46,553 nt of DNA from sequence record MK372342. One strand, given 5' to 3'. Below are positions 1 through 17,740 of this stretch, one piece after another (the first letter of the stretch is position 1; each line of letters begins with the position of its first letter). A model generated the notes under the pieces. It ran no database searches, was not told where the DNA came from, and saw only the letters and a program-made list of their open reading frames with translations. The translations under genes and the position numbers were made by a program. Origin of the DNA: Escherichia phage vB_EcoS_IME542.

Positions 1-434
1 GCATCAGATGAGACCTGAGCACCAATAGCAGTAATTTCTCCAAATTGTGTGTTAACTCGGCTTACATCACTTGAAAATTTATCCTGATCAAAATCCTTAA
101 AAACATCAACTGCTGTTGCGACCTCTGATTCCATTGATTGATAGTAACGGAGAGTTTCAGCAACATCCTGAGCTAAACCCTGAACGGTAATTCCATCGTG
201 AGCAAGAATCGCGTAACCAGTTCCGGCAGGAACGGTATCAGAATTGGGGTTATAAACATTAATCTGAGTATCACTGATAATTTCAGAGATGGTGTAAATT
301 TGTACTGGTTCAGTTTTAAATACGATGGTTGCACCAACTCTAATCAGTGTAAGGGGCGCCTTCCATGTTGTCCCTACGCCAGTCACCTCGCCATTAGCGG
401 CCAGAGACGCTGTTCCTAAGTCATAAATTGCCAT
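1..434 (-). CDS. lateral tail fiber / tailspike, N-terminal part (start codon at 434..432; ORF runs off the window at position 1 and continues in frame at 46553)
   Basis: Hand translation of minus strand from ATG 434: MAIYDLGTASLAANGEVTGVGTTWKAPLTLIRVGATIVFKTEPVQIYTISE..., no stop to position 1; GGAG RBS 10 nt upstream; not in ORF track because it has no stop in window. Confidence 0.7.
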   Translation of the reverse strand, partial: MAIYDLGTASLAANGEVTGVGTTWKAPLTLIRVGATIVFKTEPVQIYTISEIISDTQINVYNPNSDTVPAGTGYAILAHDGITVQGLAQDVAETLRYYQSMESEVATAVDVFKDFDQDKFSSDVSRVNTQFGEITAIGAQVSSD

Positions 435-2542: not shown

Positions 2543-4537
2543 ATGCTTCCAGTAGAGCGCTTAGTAGCCAACTTTGATCAAGAGAAGATTAAGCAGATTC
2601 AGAAGGATTATCAGTTTGGAGAAATCACGCCATACCCATTCCAGTGCGTGACATTCGACCAAATAGGTAAGCACATCGCTAAGTACGAAGCGCCATTCAT
2701 AGCAGACCTGTCGGTATCGGCAGGTAAGACAATCATTCTTGCCATGATTGGTAAACGCATGGAGCAGCTTGGCCTTCCTTACATGGTGCTTTCTCGCCAG
2801 TCAGAAATCATCAGCCAGAATGCTGAAGAACTCCGTAACTTCGGTATCCGTAATAGCGTATATTGCGCTGGCCTTAACGTTAAATCTGTTTACTACCCAA
2901 CTATAGTGGCAAGTGAAGGAACGGCGGCAAACGGCTTGTTCAAGGGGCTTGGTGACTATGTTCCGGCAGTTATCGCTATTGATGAGTGTCACATGCTAAA
3001 TCATATGGATATTGTCGAAGCCGAAGAGAACGAGGAAACGTTTGAGCAGATGAGCACCGCAAAAGGTGAGATGGTTTTCAAGGATGGTGAATACACGGGG
3101 TTAACTGGTACAGGTCGTTCGCAATACACTTTAATCATTACAGAGATGAAACGCCGTTGCCGTGAGAAATACAAGCGAGAACTACGTATCTTTGGTCTCA
3201 CTGGTAGCCCATACCGTGATAACAATCATATCGTGGTAAGTAATCCTAACATTCGAGGATTTTGGCGTAAGACGGTTATGCAGGTTCCAACCAATTACCT
3301 GGTGGATTTGGGTTTTGTTGTCCCAACTGTTTACGGTGAGGTTGGTGATTTGGGTTATGATCTTGCTGAATTTGCGCCAGATGGTGATGATGGAATCAAA
3401 GACTTCAGTAAGAAAGAAATGGATGCGATGCAGGAAAAAATTCATCAAAACCAGTCCATGACGCAAAAGATTATGCAGTTCGCAGCCAAGTTTATGGAAA
3501 CTCGTAACGCAGCGCTAGTAACTTGTTCAGGCAAGCGGCATTGCGAGGAGGCAGCCGCGGCGCTTCCTGATGGCGTAACCTGGGCTATAGTAACTGACTC
3601 TACTGGTGAGAAAAAACGTCGTGAGATTCTTTCTGACGCAGCTGAAGGTAAGTATAAATTCATCTTTCAGATTGGTTGTCTCACAACCGGCGTGAACGTC
3701 CCGCCATGGGATACGTCAATAATTCTTCGGAAGGTTGGAAGCATCACGTTATTGATTCAACTTTTGGGGCGAGGTATGCGGATTCTTAAGAAGAAGCATA
3801 AGGAAATGGGAATGGTTAAGGATGATCACGTGGTGCTGGACTTCGCTGGTACTCTTGATGATATGGCAGAATTGTACTTTGACCCAATTATAGAGGAGGT
3901 GCAAGACCAGAAATTCAAGTCTTCTAGTAAAGGTGGTGACGAGCCAAGGGTATGTCCAGCTTGTAGCTATGAGAACTCGCCATTTGCTCGTCGTTGTAAT
4001 AATGTTATCGAAGGTAAAAGGTGTGAGCACTTTTTTCAGTTTCGTACCTGTGATGATATTGAAGACACGCAGACAAAAGTTACTATTAAGAAAGGTTGTG
4101 GTGAGAAGAATGATATTGCTGCTAAAAACTGCCGTTGCTGCGGAGAAATGCTTATTGACCCTAACGCAAAGCTGTCTGGAAAGATGTATCGACAAGGGGA
4201 TTGGTTGAGAGTTTACGGATTCAGTATTGGGTTAACTAAAAACCAAAACGGGATCGTTGCTCGCTATGAAATCATGGCTCACAGCGGTGACAGGTTTGTT
4301 GCTTACGAAACTTTCTTTCCAGAGAGTGATCATCGCGTTTGCTCTGTGAAGTGGAAGGCGTTTTGCCAAACTCACATCGCTAACAAAACAGAAGCATTTC
4401 GCATCGGGAGACTGCGTAATGCAAGAATGATTATGACTAACGCAAGTCAATTTCGTGAGCCTTTGCGGGTGACTCATAGAAAAAATCAGAAAGGTCAGGA
4501 TATCATTGCAAACAAATCTTTTACTATGGAGGATTGA
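2543..4537 (+). CDS. SF2 (DExH-type) helicase with C-terminal zinc-ribbon region
   Basis: Walker A VSAGKT, motif II IDECH, C-terminal CPACSY...CRCCG cysteine pairs; 664 aa. Confidence 0.7.
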   Translation: MLPVERLVANFDQEKIKQIQKDYQFGEITPYPFQCVTFDQIGKHIAKYEAPFIADLSVSAGKTIILAMIGKRMEQLGLPYMVLSRQSEIISQNAEELRNFGIRNSVYCAGLNVKSVYYPTIVASEGTAANGLFKGLGDYVPAVIAIDECHMLNHMDIVEAEENEETFEQMSTAKGEMVFKDGEYTGLTGTGRSQYTLIITEMKRRCREKYKRELRIFGLTGSPYRDNNHIVVSNPNIRGFWRKTVMQVPTNYLVDLGFVVPTVYGEVGDLGYDLAEFAPDGDDGIKDFSKKEMDAMQEKIHQNQSMTQKIMQFAAKFMETRNAALVTCSGKRHCEEAAAALPDGVTWAIVTDSTGEKKRREILSDAAEGKYKFIFQIGCLTTGVNVPPWDTSIILRKVGSITLLIQLLGRGMRILKKKHKEMGMVKDDHVVLDFAGTLDDMAELYFDPIIEEVQDQKFKSSSKGGDEPRVCPACSYENSPFARRCNNVIEGKRCEHFFQFRTCDDIEDTQTKVTIKKGCGEKNDIAAKNCRCCGEMLIDPNAKLSGKMYRQGDWLRVYGFSIGLTKNQNGIVARYEIMAHSGDRFVAYETFFPESDHRVCSVKWKAFCQTHIANKTEAFRIGRLRNARMIMTNASQFREPLRVTHRKNQKGQDIIANKSFTMED

Positions 4538-6383: not shown

Positions 6384-7514
6384 ATGGCAACTGCAAAAAT
6401 AACCAACGAACAGCTTCGTGAAGAACTAGCGAGCGGCATGACTAACAAAGCAATAGCAGAGAAGTACGGTATGAATATTCGCAATGTTGAATTGCGTCGT
6501 AGTAAGCTAGCTAAGGCTGGAGATGGGCACGGTAGAGATGTAAGCAACCTTATTCCTCAAGGTTATGCAGTTAAGGGTGTATCAAGTCTTATTGGTGCTG
6601 ATGGTGAGATTAAGCAGCAGTGGGTTAAGTCTGACATCGACAAAGAGAAGCAAGAAGAGATGATGTTTCAGGCTATTGAAGCGCTTACTGATGAATTGCC
6701 GCGCGAGAAGCCTAGAGCATTAAGAGTTGGTTTGTGGGAAGACACTTTAAGTCTTTATCCTGTTTTTGATATGCACATTGGAGCAATGGCGCACCATGCA
6801 GAATGCGGGGAGAATTACAGTACTGAAATCGCAGAGCGTGTCCTTAATGATTATTTTGATTACGCTGTTGCTAAGGCTCCTTGTTCTAAGAAAGCAGTAT
6901 TGCTGATTGGTGGCGACTTCCTCCACTCAGATGGATTGGAAGCTGTTACGCCTACTAGTCATCATGTGCTGGACCAGGATAGCCGATACCATAAGCTTGT
7001 TTACGTAGCGGTTCGAGCGACTCGGCGAGCAATTAGCCGGATGCTTGATAAGCATAAAGAAGTTGAAGTTCAGATTATTCCAGGTAACCACGACCTTTCG
7101 GGTATGATTTGGTTGCGTGCAGCAATGGCGGCATTCTATATGGATGAGCCAAGGGTAAATGTTGATGCTTCACCTGCTGCGTTGCACGTAACTCAGTTTG
7201 GCAAGACGCTTCTTGGATACTGTCATGGTCATGAGCTTCGCAAGCCAGATACTCGCTTATCAACTTTGGCACGTGACCACCGCAAGGCGTTTGGTGAATC
7301 AGAATATGTTTATACCCATTCGGGCCATTATCACCATCAAACGATTACAGAAGGTAACTTGGGTATTGATGAGTCTCATGGTCAGCTTGGTGCGAAAGAT
7401 GCTTACAGCGCAAACGGTGGTTATCGCTCTTATCGCCAGGCGTCTGTAATAATCTACAGCCCTAAATTCGGCGAGATTGGTCGATTCACTTGTCGCCCAG
7501 AAATGTTTAGCTAA
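6384..7514 (+). CDS. calcineurin-like metallophosphoesterase with N-terminal HTH-like domain
   Basis: Motifs DMHIG, GGDFLHSDG, IPGNHDL, GHYHH; N-terminal MTNKAIAEKYGMNIRNVELRRSKL. Confidence 0.6.
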   Translation: MATAKITNEQLREELASGMTNKAIAEKYGMNIRNVELRRSKLAKAGDGHGRDVSNLIPQGYAVKGVSSLIGADGEIKQQWVKSDIDKEKQEEMMFQAIEALTDELPREKPRALRVGLWEDTLSLYPVFDMHIGAMAHHAECGENYSTEIAERVLNDYFDYAVAKAPCSKKAVLLIGGDFLHSDGLEAVTPTSHHVLDQDSRYHKLVYVAVRATRRAISRMLDKHKEVEVQIIPGNHDLSGMIWLRAAMAAFYMDEPRVNVDASPAALHVTQFGKTLLGYCHGHELRKPDTRLSTLARDHRKAFGESEYVYTHSGHYHHQTITEGNLGIDESHGQLGAKDAYSANGGYRSYRQASVIIYSPKFGEIGRFTCRPEMFS

Positions 7515-7572
7515 TAGCACTTTTTGCATAACCAATGCCGTAGAAATGCGGCATAATCACCGCATCGAAACT
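7515..7572 (+). promoter_or_regulatory. boxed promoter element (TAGCActtttTGCAT, hairpin TGCCG/CGGCA, CATAAT, CATCGAAAC)
   Basis: Read directly. Confidence 0.5.
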
Positions 7573-7598
7573 AGATAAACTAAACGAGTAAACACAAA

Positions 7599-7775
7599 AT
7601 GACTAAAATGATTTATTGCACCAAAAACAATTCCAAGACCCTGCCATTTACAGTCAACCAGCCGTACAATGCAGAGTACCAAGGTGACGGATATTACAAG
7701 ATTTACGGCGACGATATGACGTGGATTTTAGCGCCGATTGATGGTTCGTTAGTTGAATTTATTATCGCAGATTAA
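7599..7775 (+). CDS. hypothetical small protein (58 aa)
   Basis: Hand-translated MTKMIYCTKNNSKTLPFTVNQPYNAEYQGDGYYKIYGDDMTWILAPIDGSLVEFIIAD; follows boxed promoter. Confidence 0.4.
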   Translation: MTKMIYCTKNNSKTLPFTVNQPYNAEYQGDGYYKIYGDDMTWILAPIDGSLVEFIIAD

Positions 7776-7797
7776 CACATCAAAAACATAGATTTGC

Positions 7798-7828
7798 AAG
7801 CGGGGGGCCTTTTGGCTCCCCTTTTTTG
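7798..7828 (+). terminator. rho-independent terminator
   Basis: GC-rich hairpin GGGGGGCC-tttt-GGCTCCCC followed by TTTTTTGTG. Confidence 0.6.
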
Positions 7829-7903
7829 TGCTTACAATCCACACTTGCCTACTGTATTATATTTACACTATCTATTGACAAATTAGGATTTAAAGGTGAT
7901 CAC

Positions 7904-8119
7904 GTGAGGGAAGTAATTAACGCCGCTACGGCATCAACAGGTGGGGCGGCTGTAACTGGCGCCGCAACTGGTCAAATGACAATCGCAATAATCAGCCTTA
8001 TAGCTCTTGTTGTTTTCGGGTTGTGGGGAGCTTACTGGAAGTTTAAGGATAGCCAGGCAATCAGGAAGGCGCTGGAGTCAGGAGATTTAAAAAAAGCTAT
8101 CAATATTAGGAGTAAGTAA
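7904..8119 (+). CDS. holin, pinholin-like (GTG start at 7904; ATG at 7976 is an alternative)
   Basis: Gly/Ala-rich weakly hydrophobic segment then TM helix MTIAIISLIALVVFGLWGAYW and charged C-terminus; immediately upstream of SAR endolysin; track start TTG 7826 lies inside the terminator. Confidence 0.55.
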   Translation: MREVINAATASTGGAAVTGAATGQMTIAIISLIALVVFGLWGAYWKFKDSQAIRKALESGDLKKAINIRSK

Positions 8120-8604
8120 TGAAGCAGAAGCTGGCAATTAGTGCAGCGACGGCAGCGGCAATATACATAGCAGCGCCGATTATTGAGCTTGTAGAGGGCG
8201 TTGAGTACAAGCCTTACATGGACATTGCAGGAATCCCTACGGTCTGTGCTGGCATTACTGGCCCTGATGTTGTATGGGGTAAGAGGTACAGTAACAGGGA
8301 GTGCCGGAATCTGCTTGAGAAGCACATTCAGATTCATGGGAAGTATGTTCAGGATGCGGTGACATACCCTATCTCTCCAGAAACAAGAGCGGCATTAATC
8401 AGTTTTAGTTATAACGTTGGCGGCTCTGCAATGAGGAAGTCCACGGCAGTAAGGTTTATTAACCAAGGTAAGATTGAGGAGGGTTGCAAGGCTCTCGGGA
8501 TGTGGAACAAGATAACCAAGAATGGTAAGAAGGTTGTCGTCAAGGGGCTCGTGAACAGGCGCAACGAGGAAATAAAATTATGCTTAAGTGGGGTTGGAAA
8601 ATGA
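8119..8604 (+). CDS. SAR endolysin (T4-lysozyme-like muramidase with N-terminal signal-anchor-release domain)
   Basis: N-terminal hydrophobic ISAATAAAIYIAAPII followed by E-x8-D-x5-T catalytic spacing (ELVEGVEYKPYMDIAGIPT). Confidence 0.8.
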   Translation: MKQKLAISAATAAAIYIAAPIIELVEGVEYKPYMDIAGIPTVCAGITGPDVVWGKRYSNRECRNLLEKHIQIHGKYVQDAVTYPISPETRAALISFSYNVGGSAMRKSTAVRFINQGKIEEGCKALGMWNKITKNGKKVVVKGLVNRRNEEIKLCLSGVGK

Positions 8605-8993
8605 AGGTTGTATTAATTGCTGCGGTGATTCTGCTTTCTGGTTGTTCGGCAACATCTGCGCTGACCGGGTTAATTGGTAGTAAACCAGAGATTAGTGCTC
8701 AGGCAGGTGCGGAGAACAATAAGGTTGGAGTTGGTTTAACGAGCAAGGTTGACTCCAGTAGCTCCAGTGAATCCACGGTTAAAGATTCCAAGGTTGGGTC
8801 GCTGGATAGCTCTAGCGGGAAAAAGACTTCTGACAACTCGATTAAGGCCTCAACAATCACTGCTGAGAAGATTGAAATCACCAACAATGATTCATCTGGA
8901 ATTTATGAATTACTGGCATTAATTGGGTTCCCTCTGTTAATTGTTTTTAATGGCTGCTATGTACTTTATAGAGCAAACAAAAAAGCCCCGTAA
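8601..8993 (+). CDS. unimolecular spanin (N-terminal lipoprotein signal plus C-terminal TM helix)
   Basis: MKVVLIAAVILLSGC lipobox and C-terminal LLALIGFPLLIVFNGCYVLY; ATGA overlap with endolysin stop; architecture of the phage T1 u-spanin. Confidence 0.7.
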   Translation: MKVVLIAAVILLSGCSATSALTGLIGSKPEISAQAGAENNKVGVGLTSKVDSSSSSESTVKDSKVGSLDSSSGKKTSDNSIKASTITAEKIEITNNDSSGIYELLALIGFPLLIVFNGCYVLYRANKKAP

Positions 8994-9008
8994 TGGGGCT
9001 ATTTTTAT
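8975..9008. terminator. bidirectional terminator between convergent spanin and minus-strand genes
   Basis: GCCCC-gtaat-GGGGC flanked by A-run and T-run. Confidence 0.6.
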
Positions 9009-9340
9009 GCAAATAATTCTTCGTCATTCATGTTTGCTATTTTCATCATCTCATTCACATAGGCACTAGACTTACCTTCAAAGCTCATAAATTCAAACTG
9101 GAATGGCCTTTTGCTCGAGCCTTTAGACCAGTACACACCATTAACTCCATCAAGATACCCAGCCGTAAGCATTCTCGCCATAAACTCCTTCGAGCAACTC
9201 GATGCAAAATATCTTTCATCAACCCCCGCAGCTTTAGCAATCCTTGCACAATCCTTGTGCTTGTAGATGAATCTTGCGAGGTGTTGGCGGTTGAAGTTTT
9301 TGCATCCTTCGCAGAACCTGTACACGTCGAGAAGAAACAT
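9005..9340 (-). CDS. hypothetical protein
   Basis: 111 aa ORF, last gene of minus-strand early block. Confidence 0.45.
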   Translation of the reverse strand: MFLLDVYRFCEGCKNFNRQHLARFIYKHKDCARIAKAAGVDERYFASSCSKEFMARMLTAGYLDGVNGVYWSKGSSKRPFQFEFMSFEGKSSAYVNEMMKIANMNDEELFA

Positions 9341-17665: not shown

Positions 17666-17740
17666 GCTCTGTTAGCTTAATGGAGAAAGCCGCAGCCTTC
17701 TAAGCTGTTGATGGTGGTTCAACTCCACCACGGAGCGCCA
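17666..17740 (+). tRNA. tRNA-Arg (anticodon UCU), CCA encoded
   Basis: Hand-folded cloverleaf: acceptor GCTCTGT/ACGGAGC, D-arm GCTT-AATGGAGA-AAGC, anticodon stem GCAGC/GCTGT with loop CTTCTAA, T-arm GGTGG-TTCAACT-CCACC, discriminator G, CCA. Confidence 0.7.

Follow-up and report, generated by a model that had tools for sequence, protein, structure and literature searches.

A very likely T1-type host-lysis cassette in Escherichia phage vB_EcoS_IME542: a probably pinholin-like holin, a SAR endolysin and a unimolecular spanin

Introduction

Three genes occupy positions 7904-8993 of the DNA of Escherichia phage vB_EcoS_IME542 (record MK372342; 46,553 nucleotides, the whole of which is called the window here). 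The initial annotation took them for a pinholin-like holin, an endolysin of the signal-anchor-release (SAR) type and a unimolecular spanin (u-spanin). The locus raises the questions of whether these genes form a host-lysis cassette, where the genes start, and whether the holin would open small or large lesions in the inner membrane.

Results and discussion

Three overlapping genes match T1 13, 12 and 11

The region 7904-8993 contains three genes in one direction, and all the features ascribed to them were found at the positions listed in Table 1. What the analysis shows is the structure of the genes, their homology and motifs, the hydropathy of their products, and the synteny and conservation of the locus. 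The family profile matches of all three genes (PHROG, Pfam) were far above chance, and the products are orthologs of T1 gp13, gp12 and gp11, with the order and flanks found in T1, which bears out the reading of a holin, SAR endolysin and u-spanin cassette. The start-to-stop overlap that had been described for all three genes was also found; the holin and endolysin genes share 1 base (TAATG, 8117-8121), and the endolysin and spanin genes share 4 nt (ATGA, 8601-8604). Four inner alternative or antisense ORFs, at 8035-8337 (-), 8201-8359 (+), 8749-8919 (+) and 8702-8887 (-), matched no PHROG family. It is very likely that 7904-8993 serves a T1-like (Drexlerviridae) coliphage as its host-lysis cassette, gene-for-gene orthologous to T1 13, 12 and 11. 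The source phage is a T1-like member of the Drexlerviridae with the standard lysis module of that family. The main value of the analysis lies in correct annotation, namely the holin start, the options for the spanin start and the placement of the phage as T1-like.

Table 1. Positions of the genes, protein segments and putative signals in and around the lysis region
Feature	Position	Strand	Remarks and basis
Exonuclease homolog	6384-7514		PHROG 704; the DUF7244 gene lies between the exonuclease and holin genes
DUF7244 (SH3-clan) protein, 58 aa, T1 gp14 homolog	7599-7775	+	Outside 7904-8993; 128 nt 5' of the holin gene
Terminator-like hairpin and T-run	7802-7827	+	8-bp stem with 7 GC pairs, then TTTTTT; divides the DUF7244 gene from the cassette
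Promoter-like region	7831-7889	+	CTTACA-18-TATTAT at 7831-7860; TTTACA-16-TAGGAT at 7862-7889; consensus scan
Shine-Dalgarno-like AAAGGTGA	7892-7899	+	Ends 4 nt 5' of GTG 7904; read from sequence
Holin, 71 aa, T1 gp13 ortholog	GTG 7904 to TAA 8117-8119	+	PHROG 2877; T1 gp13 alignment
Holin N-terminal segment, Gly/Ala/Ser/Thr-rich	7913-7975	+	Residues 4-24; hydropathy
Holin strong transmembrane domain (TMD)	7976-8038	+	Residues 25-45; hydropathy
SAR endolysin, 161 aa, GH24 lysozyme, T1 gp12 ortholog	ATG 8119 to TGA 8602-8604	+	Pfam; PHROG; T1 gp12
Signal-anchor-release segment, Ala-rich	8131-8184	+	Endolysin residues 5-22; preceded by K2 and K4
Catalytic E26, D35 and T41	8194-8196, 8221-8223, 8239-8241	+	E-x8-D-x5-T
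u-Spanin, 130 aa, T1 gp11 ortholog	ATG 8601 to TAA 8991-8993	+	PHROG 1804; T1 gp11
Spanin lipobox LSGC, Cys15	8634-8645	+	N-terminus MKVVLIAAVILLSGC
Spanin periplasmic region, Ser-rich		+	Residues 16-100
Spanin C-terminal TMD	8901-8969	+	Residues about 101-123, then basic tail RANKKAP
Bidirectional terminator-like hairpin	8984-9000	both	Spanin stop TAA 8991-8993 forms the loop
Convergent gene past the cassette	9005-9340	-	

Terminator-like hairpins stand on both sides of the cassette. In relatives belonging to several genera, a hairpin and T-run likewise stand where the upstream one does. The downstream one has its counterpart in T1 in an annotated terminator that overlaps the end of gene 11. 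The consensus scan for promoters returned a number of sites not above the shuffled expectation, and the alignment of relatives showed conservation of ATTGACAAAT at 7874-7883 and of a TATTAT-like hexamer. A promoter may tentatively be placed at 7831-7889. As a repeated phage promoter element, ATTGACAAAT was rejected, since its 4 matches in the window, versus 6.2 expected, show no enrichment.

The holin starts at GTG 7904

The holin aligned over its full length with PHROG 2877 (E 5.7e-37, its residues 1-71 covering profile positions 1-71) and without gaps with T1 gp13 (56% identity over 71/71 residues, E 5e-31), and its 27 unique homologs are 71-74 aa long. The start codon had been left between GTG 7904 and ATG 7976. 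The doubt is resolved in favour of the former by the conservation of codons 2-24, which in comparison with close relatives carry 6-10 synonymous and 0-1 non-synonymous changes, indicating purifying selection. A GGTGG or GGAGG equivalent of the Shine-Dalgarno-like sequence precedes the holin ATG in relatives. ATG 7976, the codon of M25, was rejected as the start: it lacks a Shine-Dalgarno sequence, its Met is replaced by L, I or V in relatives, the 24 codons 5' of it are conserved as protein, and both the PHROG profile and T1 gp13 align from residue 1. We also rejected TTG 7826, the start of a mechanical 97-aa ORF that is used in the record of the related phage TR1, as it falls within the T-run of the upstream terminator; the extra 26 N-terminal residues matched nothing. 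As judged from the sequence, the holin start is settled as GTG 7904, giving a protein of 71 aa in place of the 97-aa form in the related GenBank record TR1.

The endolysin carries a predicted SAR segment of the R21 type

The second gene product matched Pfam PF00959 (Phage_lysozyme; E 3.5e-34) and PHROG endolysin family 7 (E 7.4e-49), and shares 46% identity with T1 gp12 (E 2e-45) and 43% with R21, a SAR endolysin of solved structure (3HDE, 3HDF). Searches of the PDB returned 3HDE (E 2.3e-26) and 4ZPU (E 6.2e-27), and residues 10-158 aligned to residues 18-163 of 3HDE, reaching into the SAR segment. E26, D35 and T41 aligned to E35, D44 and T50 of R21. The N-terminus consists of MKQK followed by LAISAATAAAIYIAAPII, a run of 18 uncharged residues, and E26 stands 4 residues past its end. 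Over the best 19-residue window (7-25) the Kyte-Doolittle mean is 1.85, and 47% of the residues are Gly, Ala, Ser or Thr. With homology to R21, an aligned triad and an N-terminal anchor, the SAR domain and the E-x8-D-x5-T spacing proposed earlier are both upheld.

The same N-terminus could be imagined as a cleavable Sec signal peptide, with the soluble secreted enzyme restrained in some other way, since an n-region (MKQK) and an h-region are present and the Ala-rich stretches might offer AxA-like sites. However, the sole IAA site is followed by Pro20, and only 3 residues separate I22 from E26, so that cleavage would leave no linker. In the homolog R21, moreover, the N-terminal segment is proven to act as a SAR domain and to become part of the enzyme body on refolding, and the endolysin aligns with R21 into this segment; the uncharged run and the catalytic triad recur in 26/26 unique holin-first relatives. 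We therefore regard a cleavable signal peptide as very improbable. In the P1 Lyz subtype of SAR endolysin, a Cys inside the SAR segment permits activation by disulfide exchange (isomerisation). Since no Cys lies within residues 1-25 of the endolysin, nor in this stretch of any holin-first relative, the enzyme would be of the R21 (refolding) type and not of the P1 type. Export by Sec, tethering to the membrane and release upon loss of the proton-motive force are predicted for it from its homology to R21 and from the literature (PMC9636201).

The third gene is supported as a u-spanin

The product of the last gene matched PHROG 1804 over its full length (E 4.1e-46) and shares 40% identity (48/120) with T1 gp11 (E 1e-24) and 50-87% with other members of the family. 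T1 gp11 is the prototype u-spanin and complements the lambda Rz/Rz1 defect (PMC6139136). The family was clustered at >=40% identity over >=40% length (PMC6139136, Kongari et al. 2018), an identity level that the spanin reaches with its relatives and that is borderline against T1 gp11 itself (40%). An alternative in-frame ATG at 8580 is open and would give 137 aa with a 25-nt overlap with the endolysin gene, leaving the mature protein unchanged.

Both a lipobox LSGC and a C-terminal TM helix had been claimed for this single chain, and both were found here and across related loci. The signal MKVVLIAAVILLSGC consists of Lys2, a 10-residue h-region and L-S-G-C ending in Cys15, and fits the PROSITE-type lipobox rule. 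Cys15 is followed by Ser (+2) and Ala, and SA or ST follows the Cys in 81 related loci; a lipoprotein whose lipoylated Cys has no Asp at the +2 position is sorted to the outer membrane. At the other end, residues 104-123 are uncharged with a best 19-residue Kyte-Doolittle mean of 2.26 (family minimum 1.81). The only Cys residues are Cys15 in the lipobox and Cys119 inside the TMD, and periplasmic Cys is likewise absent in 81/82 related spanins. In the one exception (L020), the script took a spurious upstream 'IIAC' for the VSGC lipobox, and the two counted Cys residues lie in the signal peptide.

The gene could in principle encode a generic phage lipoprotein, such as a superinfection-exclusion factor of the Cor/Llp type, that follows the endolysin gene by chance. 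Weak PHROG matches to Cor and other lipoproteins were indeed obtained (E 0.05-0.4), but they cover the signal peptide alone, in contrast to the full-length spanin match and the identity to T1 gp11. The C-terminal TMD is found in related loci whereas Cor-type lipoproteins have none, and T1 encodes its cor elsewhere (gene 30). This alternative is thus extremely unlikely. The gene is the last of the cassette, overlaps the endolysin stop and is followed by the terminator, and T1gp11-family spanins sit in pinholin and SAR-endolysin cassettes (PMC6139136). Its homology and motifs support the assignment of the protein as an outer-membrane-disrupting u-spanin, complementation being known for T1 gp11 only. 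The description of this architecture as rare and first described in T1 stands as regards the prototype; 'rare' is a relative term, with homologs in 1093/50,697 phage records.

The periplasmic domain of the T1 gp11 family is reported to consist mainly of beta strands (PMC6139136). The hydrophobic moment of the spanin shows beta-type periodicity at residues 25-38, 41-54 and 90-98, and the alpha-type signal is almost nil. Single-sequence AF2 placed helices only at 2-25 and 99-128 (pLDDT 73-86 for the latter) and predicted no strands between residues 26 and 98; with its mean pLDDT at 60, the model is uninformative for the periplasmic domain.

The holin is probably pinholin-like

In the holin, a first hydrophobic segment leads into a strong TMD, and the C-terminus forms a basic tail. 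Residues 4-22 have a Kyte-Doolittle mean of 0.91 and contain 79% Gly/Ala/Ser/Thr, compared with 0.64 and 63% in TMD1 of the pinholin prototype S21 68, whose sequence was verified against phage 21. BLASTP found no similarity between the two proteins (E 1.8), and the holin matched no Pfam holin family at E < 0.01; any resemblance to S21 68 is one of architecture, not ancestry. A dual-start antiholin motif is absent from the holin, in which the sole other in-frame Met, M25, lies at the edge of the TMD. A dual-start antiholin is not obligatory for pinholins. The SAR endolysin gene adjoins the holin gene, as expected for a pinholin. From this architecture and pairing, the holin is probably pinholin-like, a class call that sequence cannot prove. 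Specialists also class T1-family holins as pinholins (PMC6139136, PMC11447400); we found no experiments on T1 gp13 or its relatives in the literature, where the pinholin calls are bioinformatic (PMC6139136, PMC11447400, PMC13164509). The term 'pinholin-like' of the initial annotation can thus be kept for the architecture, the SAR endolysin neighbour and the published T1 calls, whereas it does not extend to sequence similarity with S21 68.

The holin of the same cassette could instead be of the canonical large-hole kind and have a single TMD (N-out, C-in). Depolarisation would activate the SAR endolysin anyway, and the holes would also pass cytoplasmic proteins such as the DUF7244/SH3-like protein encoded upstream. 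Only Gly-Gln separates the first hydrophobic segment from the main TMD; the two form one unbroken uncharged stretch of 42 residues without an inter-helix loop, and simple hydropathy calls one TMD. Since the two segments are contiguous, a single-TMD N-out/C-in topology would be equally compatible with the sequence as two TMDs, and the T1 GenBank record annotates its holin with a 'single transmembrane domain'. The lack of homology to S21 points in the same direction, as does the precedent of phage P1, which pairs a SAR endolysin with a non-pinholin; SAR endolysins can also work with large-hole holins, as they do there. A linked, conserved, signal-less and putatively wall-binding DUF7244 protein would, in addition, need a large hole to reach the peptidoglycan. 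On the other hand, this linkage may be mere synteny, with a terminator between the DUF7244 gene and the holin gene, and the N-terminal segment, which is strongly conserved, is as weakly hydrophobic and as rich in Gly/Ala/Ser/Thr as the SAR-type TMD1 of S21 68. Together with the specialists' pinholin calls, these points make a large-hole holin possible but doubtful. The choice between the two holin types concerns the family as a whole and not this phage in particular.

A DUF7244 gene lies directly upstream

The DUF7244 gene at 7599-7775 was overlooked in the first reading of the cassette. Its product matched Pfam PF23896 (E 1.3e-29, 102.5 bits versus a cutoff of 27) and PHROG 4788 (E 9.4e-34) and is 44% identical to T1 gp14. 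The gene lies directly 5' of the holin gene in 28/32 holin-first loci. The DUF7244/SH3-like protein was recently put forward as a possible accessory ('shell') part of the Drexlerviridae lysis module (PMC13164509). We consider it improbable that this signal-less protein takes part in lysis, a role suggested for it in 2026. If it did, the T1-family holin could not be a simple pinholin. Its lesions would then have to let through a folded protein with a mass of about 6.6 kDa, or else the SH3-like protein would work from the cytoplasmic side, perhaps binding the basic tail of the holin as an antiholin outside the membrane or as a timing factor. In both cases the textbook account of T1 lysis, 'pinholin + SAR endolysin + u-spanin', would need revision.

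Proposed course of lysis

With a pinholin-like holin, the following course can be proposed on the T1 and phage 21 paradigms, in which topology, timing, pore size and membrane fusion are predictions for the present proteins. The cassette would be transcribed as a single unit between the two terminators, and translation of its three genes would be coupled via the TAATG and ATGA junctions. Sec would export the endolysin, and the weakly hydrophobic SAR segment would tether the enzyme, still inactive, to the inner membrane on its periplasmic side. Meanwhile, the 71-aa holin would build up in the inner membrane until, at a programmed time, its lesions collapse the proton-motive force. These lesions are probably small 'pinholes', because the endolysin needs no large hole to exit. 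Depolarisation would free the SAR segment, and the endolysin would refold as in R21, without a disulfide switch, into an active muramidase (E26/D35/T41) that degrades the peptidoglycan. The spanin would be lipoylated at Cys15 and, having Ser at +2, be sent to the outer membrane, with its C-terminal helix still anchored in the inner one. Loss of the wall meshwork would then allow the spanin to disrupt the outer membrane, in all likelihood through fusion of the two membranes.

Comparison with known systems

The gene order exonuclease, DUF7244, holin, endolysin, spanin, terminator and two convergent genes corresponds to T1 16-14-13-12-11-10-9. T1 also has a 71-aa holin and shares the LSGC lipobox and the E-x8-D-x5-T triad, although the sequences have diverged (the identities given above for holin, endolysin and spanin fall from 56% to 46% and 40%). 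The T1 holin starts with ATG instead of GTG, an HNH endonuclease gene (gene 15) that is absent here stands between the exonuclease gene and gp14, the junctions are of the ATGA and TAATG types but not identical to those here, and the spanin TMD is unrelated in sequence except in hydrophobicity.

The nearest database relative is TR1 (OP087522; Braunvirinae, Christensenvirus), with 90.9% nucleotide identity over the region and the same three genes annotated as holin, lysozyme and u-spanin. Its holin coding DNA is identical, and 160/161 endolysin residues are identical, whereas the spanin is only 77% identical. A frameshift behind the divergent spanin TMD was ruled out, the DNA of this C-terminal segment itself having been replaced. 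The upstream spanin ATG is closed by TAA in TR1, whereas ATG 8580 is open here, and the holin CDS in the TR1 record begins at the TTG inside the terminator, which makes it 26 codons too long.

Phage 21 (S21 68, R21, Rz/Rz1) is the functional paradigm, and R21 is a true homolog of the present endolysin. The holins are alike in size (68 aa in phage 21, 71 aa here) and in layout, with a first segment of weak hydrophobicity followed by a strong TMD and then a basic tail, and the genes overlap start-to-stop in both phages. S21, however, has a 7-residue inter-TMD loop and the dual-start antiholin S21 71, neither of which is present here, and phage 21 has an embedded i-spanin/o-spanin pair in place of the single-chain spanin. 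Klebsiella T1-like phages of about 43 kb possess a u-spanin about 51% identical to that described here, with a shared CSATSALTGL(I/V)GSKP motif at the lipobox Cys. They also have a SAR-type GH24 endolysin, but a longer one (199-203 aa); their genes stand in a permuted order that begins with the spanin, the DUF7244 gene is absent, and the holin belongs to another family (80-83 aa) with a clear inter-TMD loop.

A cassette of a small holin, a membrane-tethered lysozyme and a single-chain spanin is an ordinary type that is already known. The Young laboratory, and other authors after it, have described the T1-family cassette as pinholin, SAR endolysin and u-spanin (PMC6139136, PMC11447400, PMC13164509), a reading given for TLS and T1 (PMC11447400) and for KanT1 and 508/522 Drexlerviridae (PMC13164509).

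Organization of the lysis genes and relationship to T1

We read the region 7700-9200 directly and listed its ORFs. Three genes, all on the + strand, occupy 7904-8993, and the next gene after the downstream hairpin is convergent on the opposite strand. The initial annotation had described a cassette of a pinholin-like holin, a SAR endolysin and a unimolecular spanin (u-spanin). Its sequence description was accurate. Gene structure, homology, motifs and conservation of the cassette were all observed directly.

Features of the lysis region of MK372342
Feature	Coordinates	Strand	Remarks
DUF7244 (SH3-clan) gene, T1 gp14 homolog	7599-7775	+	58 aa; directly upstream of the cassette; overlooked in the initial annotation
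Terminator-like hairpin and T-run	7802-7827		upstream of the lysis unit
Holin ORF	GTG 7904 to TAA 8117-8119	+	71 aa; AAAGGTGA upstream of GTG
Endolysin ORF	ATG 8119 to TGA 8602-8604	+	161 aa; shares one base with the holin stop (TAATG)
Spanin ORF	ATG 8601 to TAA 8991-8993	+	130 aa; 4-base overlap with the endolysin stop (ATGA)
Bidirectional hairpin	8984-9000		downstream end of the unit; loop is the spanin stop codon

All three lysis proteins gave strong, full-length profile matches: the holin to PHROG 2877 (E 5.7e-37; residues 1-71 on profile positions 1-71), the endolysin to Pfam Phage_lysozyme (E 3.5e-34) and PHROG 7 (E 7.4e-49), and the spanin to PHROG 1804, 'Rz-like spanin' (E 4.1e-46). 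In a nucleotide search, the region grouped with T1-like coliphages. The top match was Escherichia phage TR1 (Drexlerviridae, Braunvirinae; 90.9% identity), whose record labels a holin, a lysozyme and a u-spanin. Pairwise identities to the T1 proteins were 56% for the holin (71/71 residues, gapless), 46% for the endolysin and 40% for the spanin. T1 and the window share the order exonuclease (gene 16), small gene 14, holin 13, endolysin 12 and spanin 11, followed by a terminator and the convergent genes 10 and 9. They differ only in gene 15 (HNH endonuclease), which T1 carries between the exonuclease gene and gp14 and which is missing from window 7515-7598, where the DUF7244 gene almost abuts the 3' end of the exonuclease gene (6384-7514). 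The three genes are orthologs of the T1 lysis genes and not look-alikes. The cassette is real and had been correctly interpreted.

Outside the lysis region, window 1-25000 matched the nearest database phages (the vB_EcoS-12397 group) at only ~82% identity across 68% of its length, and the phage may thus represent a species absent from the August 2025 phage collection. A single tRNA-Arg gene (anticodon TCT) lies at 17666-17740 (+) and is also annotated in related vB_EcoS phages.

Start codon and type of the holin

The holin start had been left open between GTG 7904 and ATG 7976; four lines of sequence evidence settle it at GTG 7904. T1 gp13 and the PHROG profile both align with the holin from residue 1. 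Related loci yielded 27 unique homologs; these measure 71-74 aa, have in common the N-terminal consensus M-(R/K)-(E/D)-x-(I/L)-N-x-A-T-x-x-T-G-G…G-A-A-T-G-Q, and mostly have ATG at the equivalent codon. In close relatives (DNA ~18% different), codons 2-24 show 6-10 synonymous versus 0-1 non-synonymous changes. Finally, ATG 7976 lacks a ribosome-binding site, and relatives have L, I or V in place of its Met. A longer mechanical ORF from TTG 7826 was also rejected because this codon lies inside the terminator T-run and the extra 26 residues match nothing. The TR1 holin CDS in GenBank OP087522 (2704-2997 of the TR1 locus) starts at such a TTG in the upstream T-run and encodes 97 aa. The family profile covers just the final 71 of these residues, so the public record probably overextends the CDS by 26 codons.

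The sequence ATTGACAAAT (7874-7883, +), ~20 nt upstream of the holin start, is kept in relatives of several genera, but not in T1. It is too near the start codon for an ordinary -35 element, and no enrichment was seen in the rest of the window (4 matches versus 6.2 expected).

The holin was compared with the prototype pinholin S21 68, whose sequence was checked against phage 21 beforehand. The architectures resemble each other: the lengths are 71 and 68 aa, the Kyte-Doolittle mean of the holin's first segment (residues 4-22) is 0.91, with 79% Gly/Ala/Ser/Thr, compared with 0.64 and 63% in the SAR-type TMD1 of S21, and both proteins have a strong TMD followed by a basic cytoplasmic tail. On the other hand, no sequence similarity to S21 68 (E 1.8) was detected, and the two hydrophobic segments are contiguous, with just Gly-Gln in between. 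The holin matched no Pfam holin family and showed no dual-start antiholin. The T1 GenBank record gives its holin a 'single transmembrane domain', while the TLS paper assigns two TMDs and class II pinholin (PMC11447400); pinholin is also the call of the Young laboratory and of a 2026 study (PMC6139136, PMC13164509). The label 'pinholin-like' is thus plausible and moderately likely, in line with current expert opinion, and unproven.

The SAR endolysin

Among solved structures, E. coli RrrD (4ZPU) and phage 21 R21 (3HDE, 3HDF) are nearest, with E values of 6e-27 to 1e-25. The endolysin is 43% identical to R21 as encoded in the phage 21 genome, and E26, D35 and T41 aligned onto R21 E35, D44 and T50, in agreement with the annotated lysozyme catalytic spacing. 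The N-terminus consists of MKQK and 18 uncharged Ala-rich residues leading directly into the catalytic Glu region, a design kept in 26/26 unique holin-first relatives. The first 25 residues contain no Cys, which excludes the P1-Lyz disulfide-switch subtype and leaves the R21 refolding type as the model.

The unimolecular spanin

Both a lipoprotein signal and a TM helix at the C-terminus are present in one chain, as had been proposed. The signal MKVVLIAAVILLSGC contains a canonical lipobox and carries a Ser at +2 for sorting to the outer membrane. A hydrophobic helix spans residues 104-123, with a basic tail behind it, and cysteines occur at two sites only, the lipoyl Cys15 and, within the TMD, Cys119. 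These are exactly the features by which Kongari et al. 2018 defined u-spanins (PMC6139136). Among related loci from a viral contig collection, TR1 and T1, the lipobox (LSGC or LTGC in 79) and C-terminal TMD are kept, together with the motif C-S-(A/T)-(S/T)-S-A-L-(T/S)-G-L-(I/V)-G-S-K-P. A scripted scan found 81 related spanins without periplasmic Cys; in the one exception, locus L020, it had matched a spurious upstream 'IIAC' instead of the VSGC lipobox read from the sequence. Single-sequence AlphaFold2 gave a low-confidence model in which the two membrane segments alone are helical. A beta-rich periplasmic domain is a reported family trait (PMC6139136), and a hydrophobic-moment scan showed beta-type periodicity, which is suggestive only.

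A further open start is the in-frame ATG 8580, preceded by GAGGA at 9 nt (MLKWGWK-MKV… at 8580-8603, +); both starts give a valid lipoprotein signal and an identical mature protein. In TR1 (3458-3481 of its locus) a TAA in the codon preceding the ATG closes the upstream start, whereas IME253-like relatives have only the upstream type (MLKWIAAL…). The signal-peptide N-region was evidently remodelled by a short insertion. Compared with TR1, the DNA for the C-terminal TMD (8895-8975, +) is replaced, whereas the two phages share 100% of the holin gene DNA and 160/161 aa of the endolysin, which indicates a mosaic junction within the spanin gene.

The DUF7244 gene upstream

The 7599-7775 ORF matched Pfam DUF7244 (E 1.3e-29; 102.5 bits, cutoff 27) and showed 44% identity to T1 gp14. 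Eremina et al. 2026 described it as a standalone SH3-clan domain, found in 188/522 Drexlerviridae always beside lysis genes, and proposed it as an auxiliary lysis component (PMC13164509). Among 32 holin-first loci, 28 carry the gene before the holin, and none of 47 spanin-first loci does so. The spacing is always 121-146 nt and contains a terminator-like hairpin. This linkage could be simple synteny. As for an auxiliary lysis role, the protein has no signal sequence, and action on peptidoglycan would need a hole larger than a pinhole. This thread alone carries any novelty and is not particular to the window.

The 47 spanin-first loci (among L021-L082, Klebsiella-type IMG/VR contigs of about 43 kb) begin with a homologous u-spanin, followed by a different 80-83-aa holin of clear two-TMD layout and a longer SAR endolysin (199-203 aa). 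In these loci the cassette is thus permuted and lacks the DUF7244 gene.

Proposed lysis mechanism and comparison with known systems

The lysis genes would be co-transcribed between the two terminators and translationally coupled. The endolysin would be exported and held inactive by its SAR tether while the holin builds up. On holin triggering, the proton-motive force would collapse, and the SAR segment would exit the membrane, allowing the endolysin to refold and degrade the wall. The spanin, with its lipid anchor in the outer membrane and helix anchor in the inner membrane, would be freed from the meshwork and disrupt the outer membrane, probably via membrane fusion (PMC6139136; PMC9636201). 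The topology, timing, pore size and fusion in this scheme are modelled on T1 and phage 21. T1 gene 11 complements a lambda Rz/Rz1 defect, and the T1gp11 family is the largest of the u-spanin families, its members being located in pinholin and SAR-endolysin cassettes (PMC6139136). Of 50,697 phage records, 1093 contain a homolog of the window spanin. The cassette is already known: it is the standard, published T1-like lysis module, present in 508/522 Drexlerviridae (PMC13164509).
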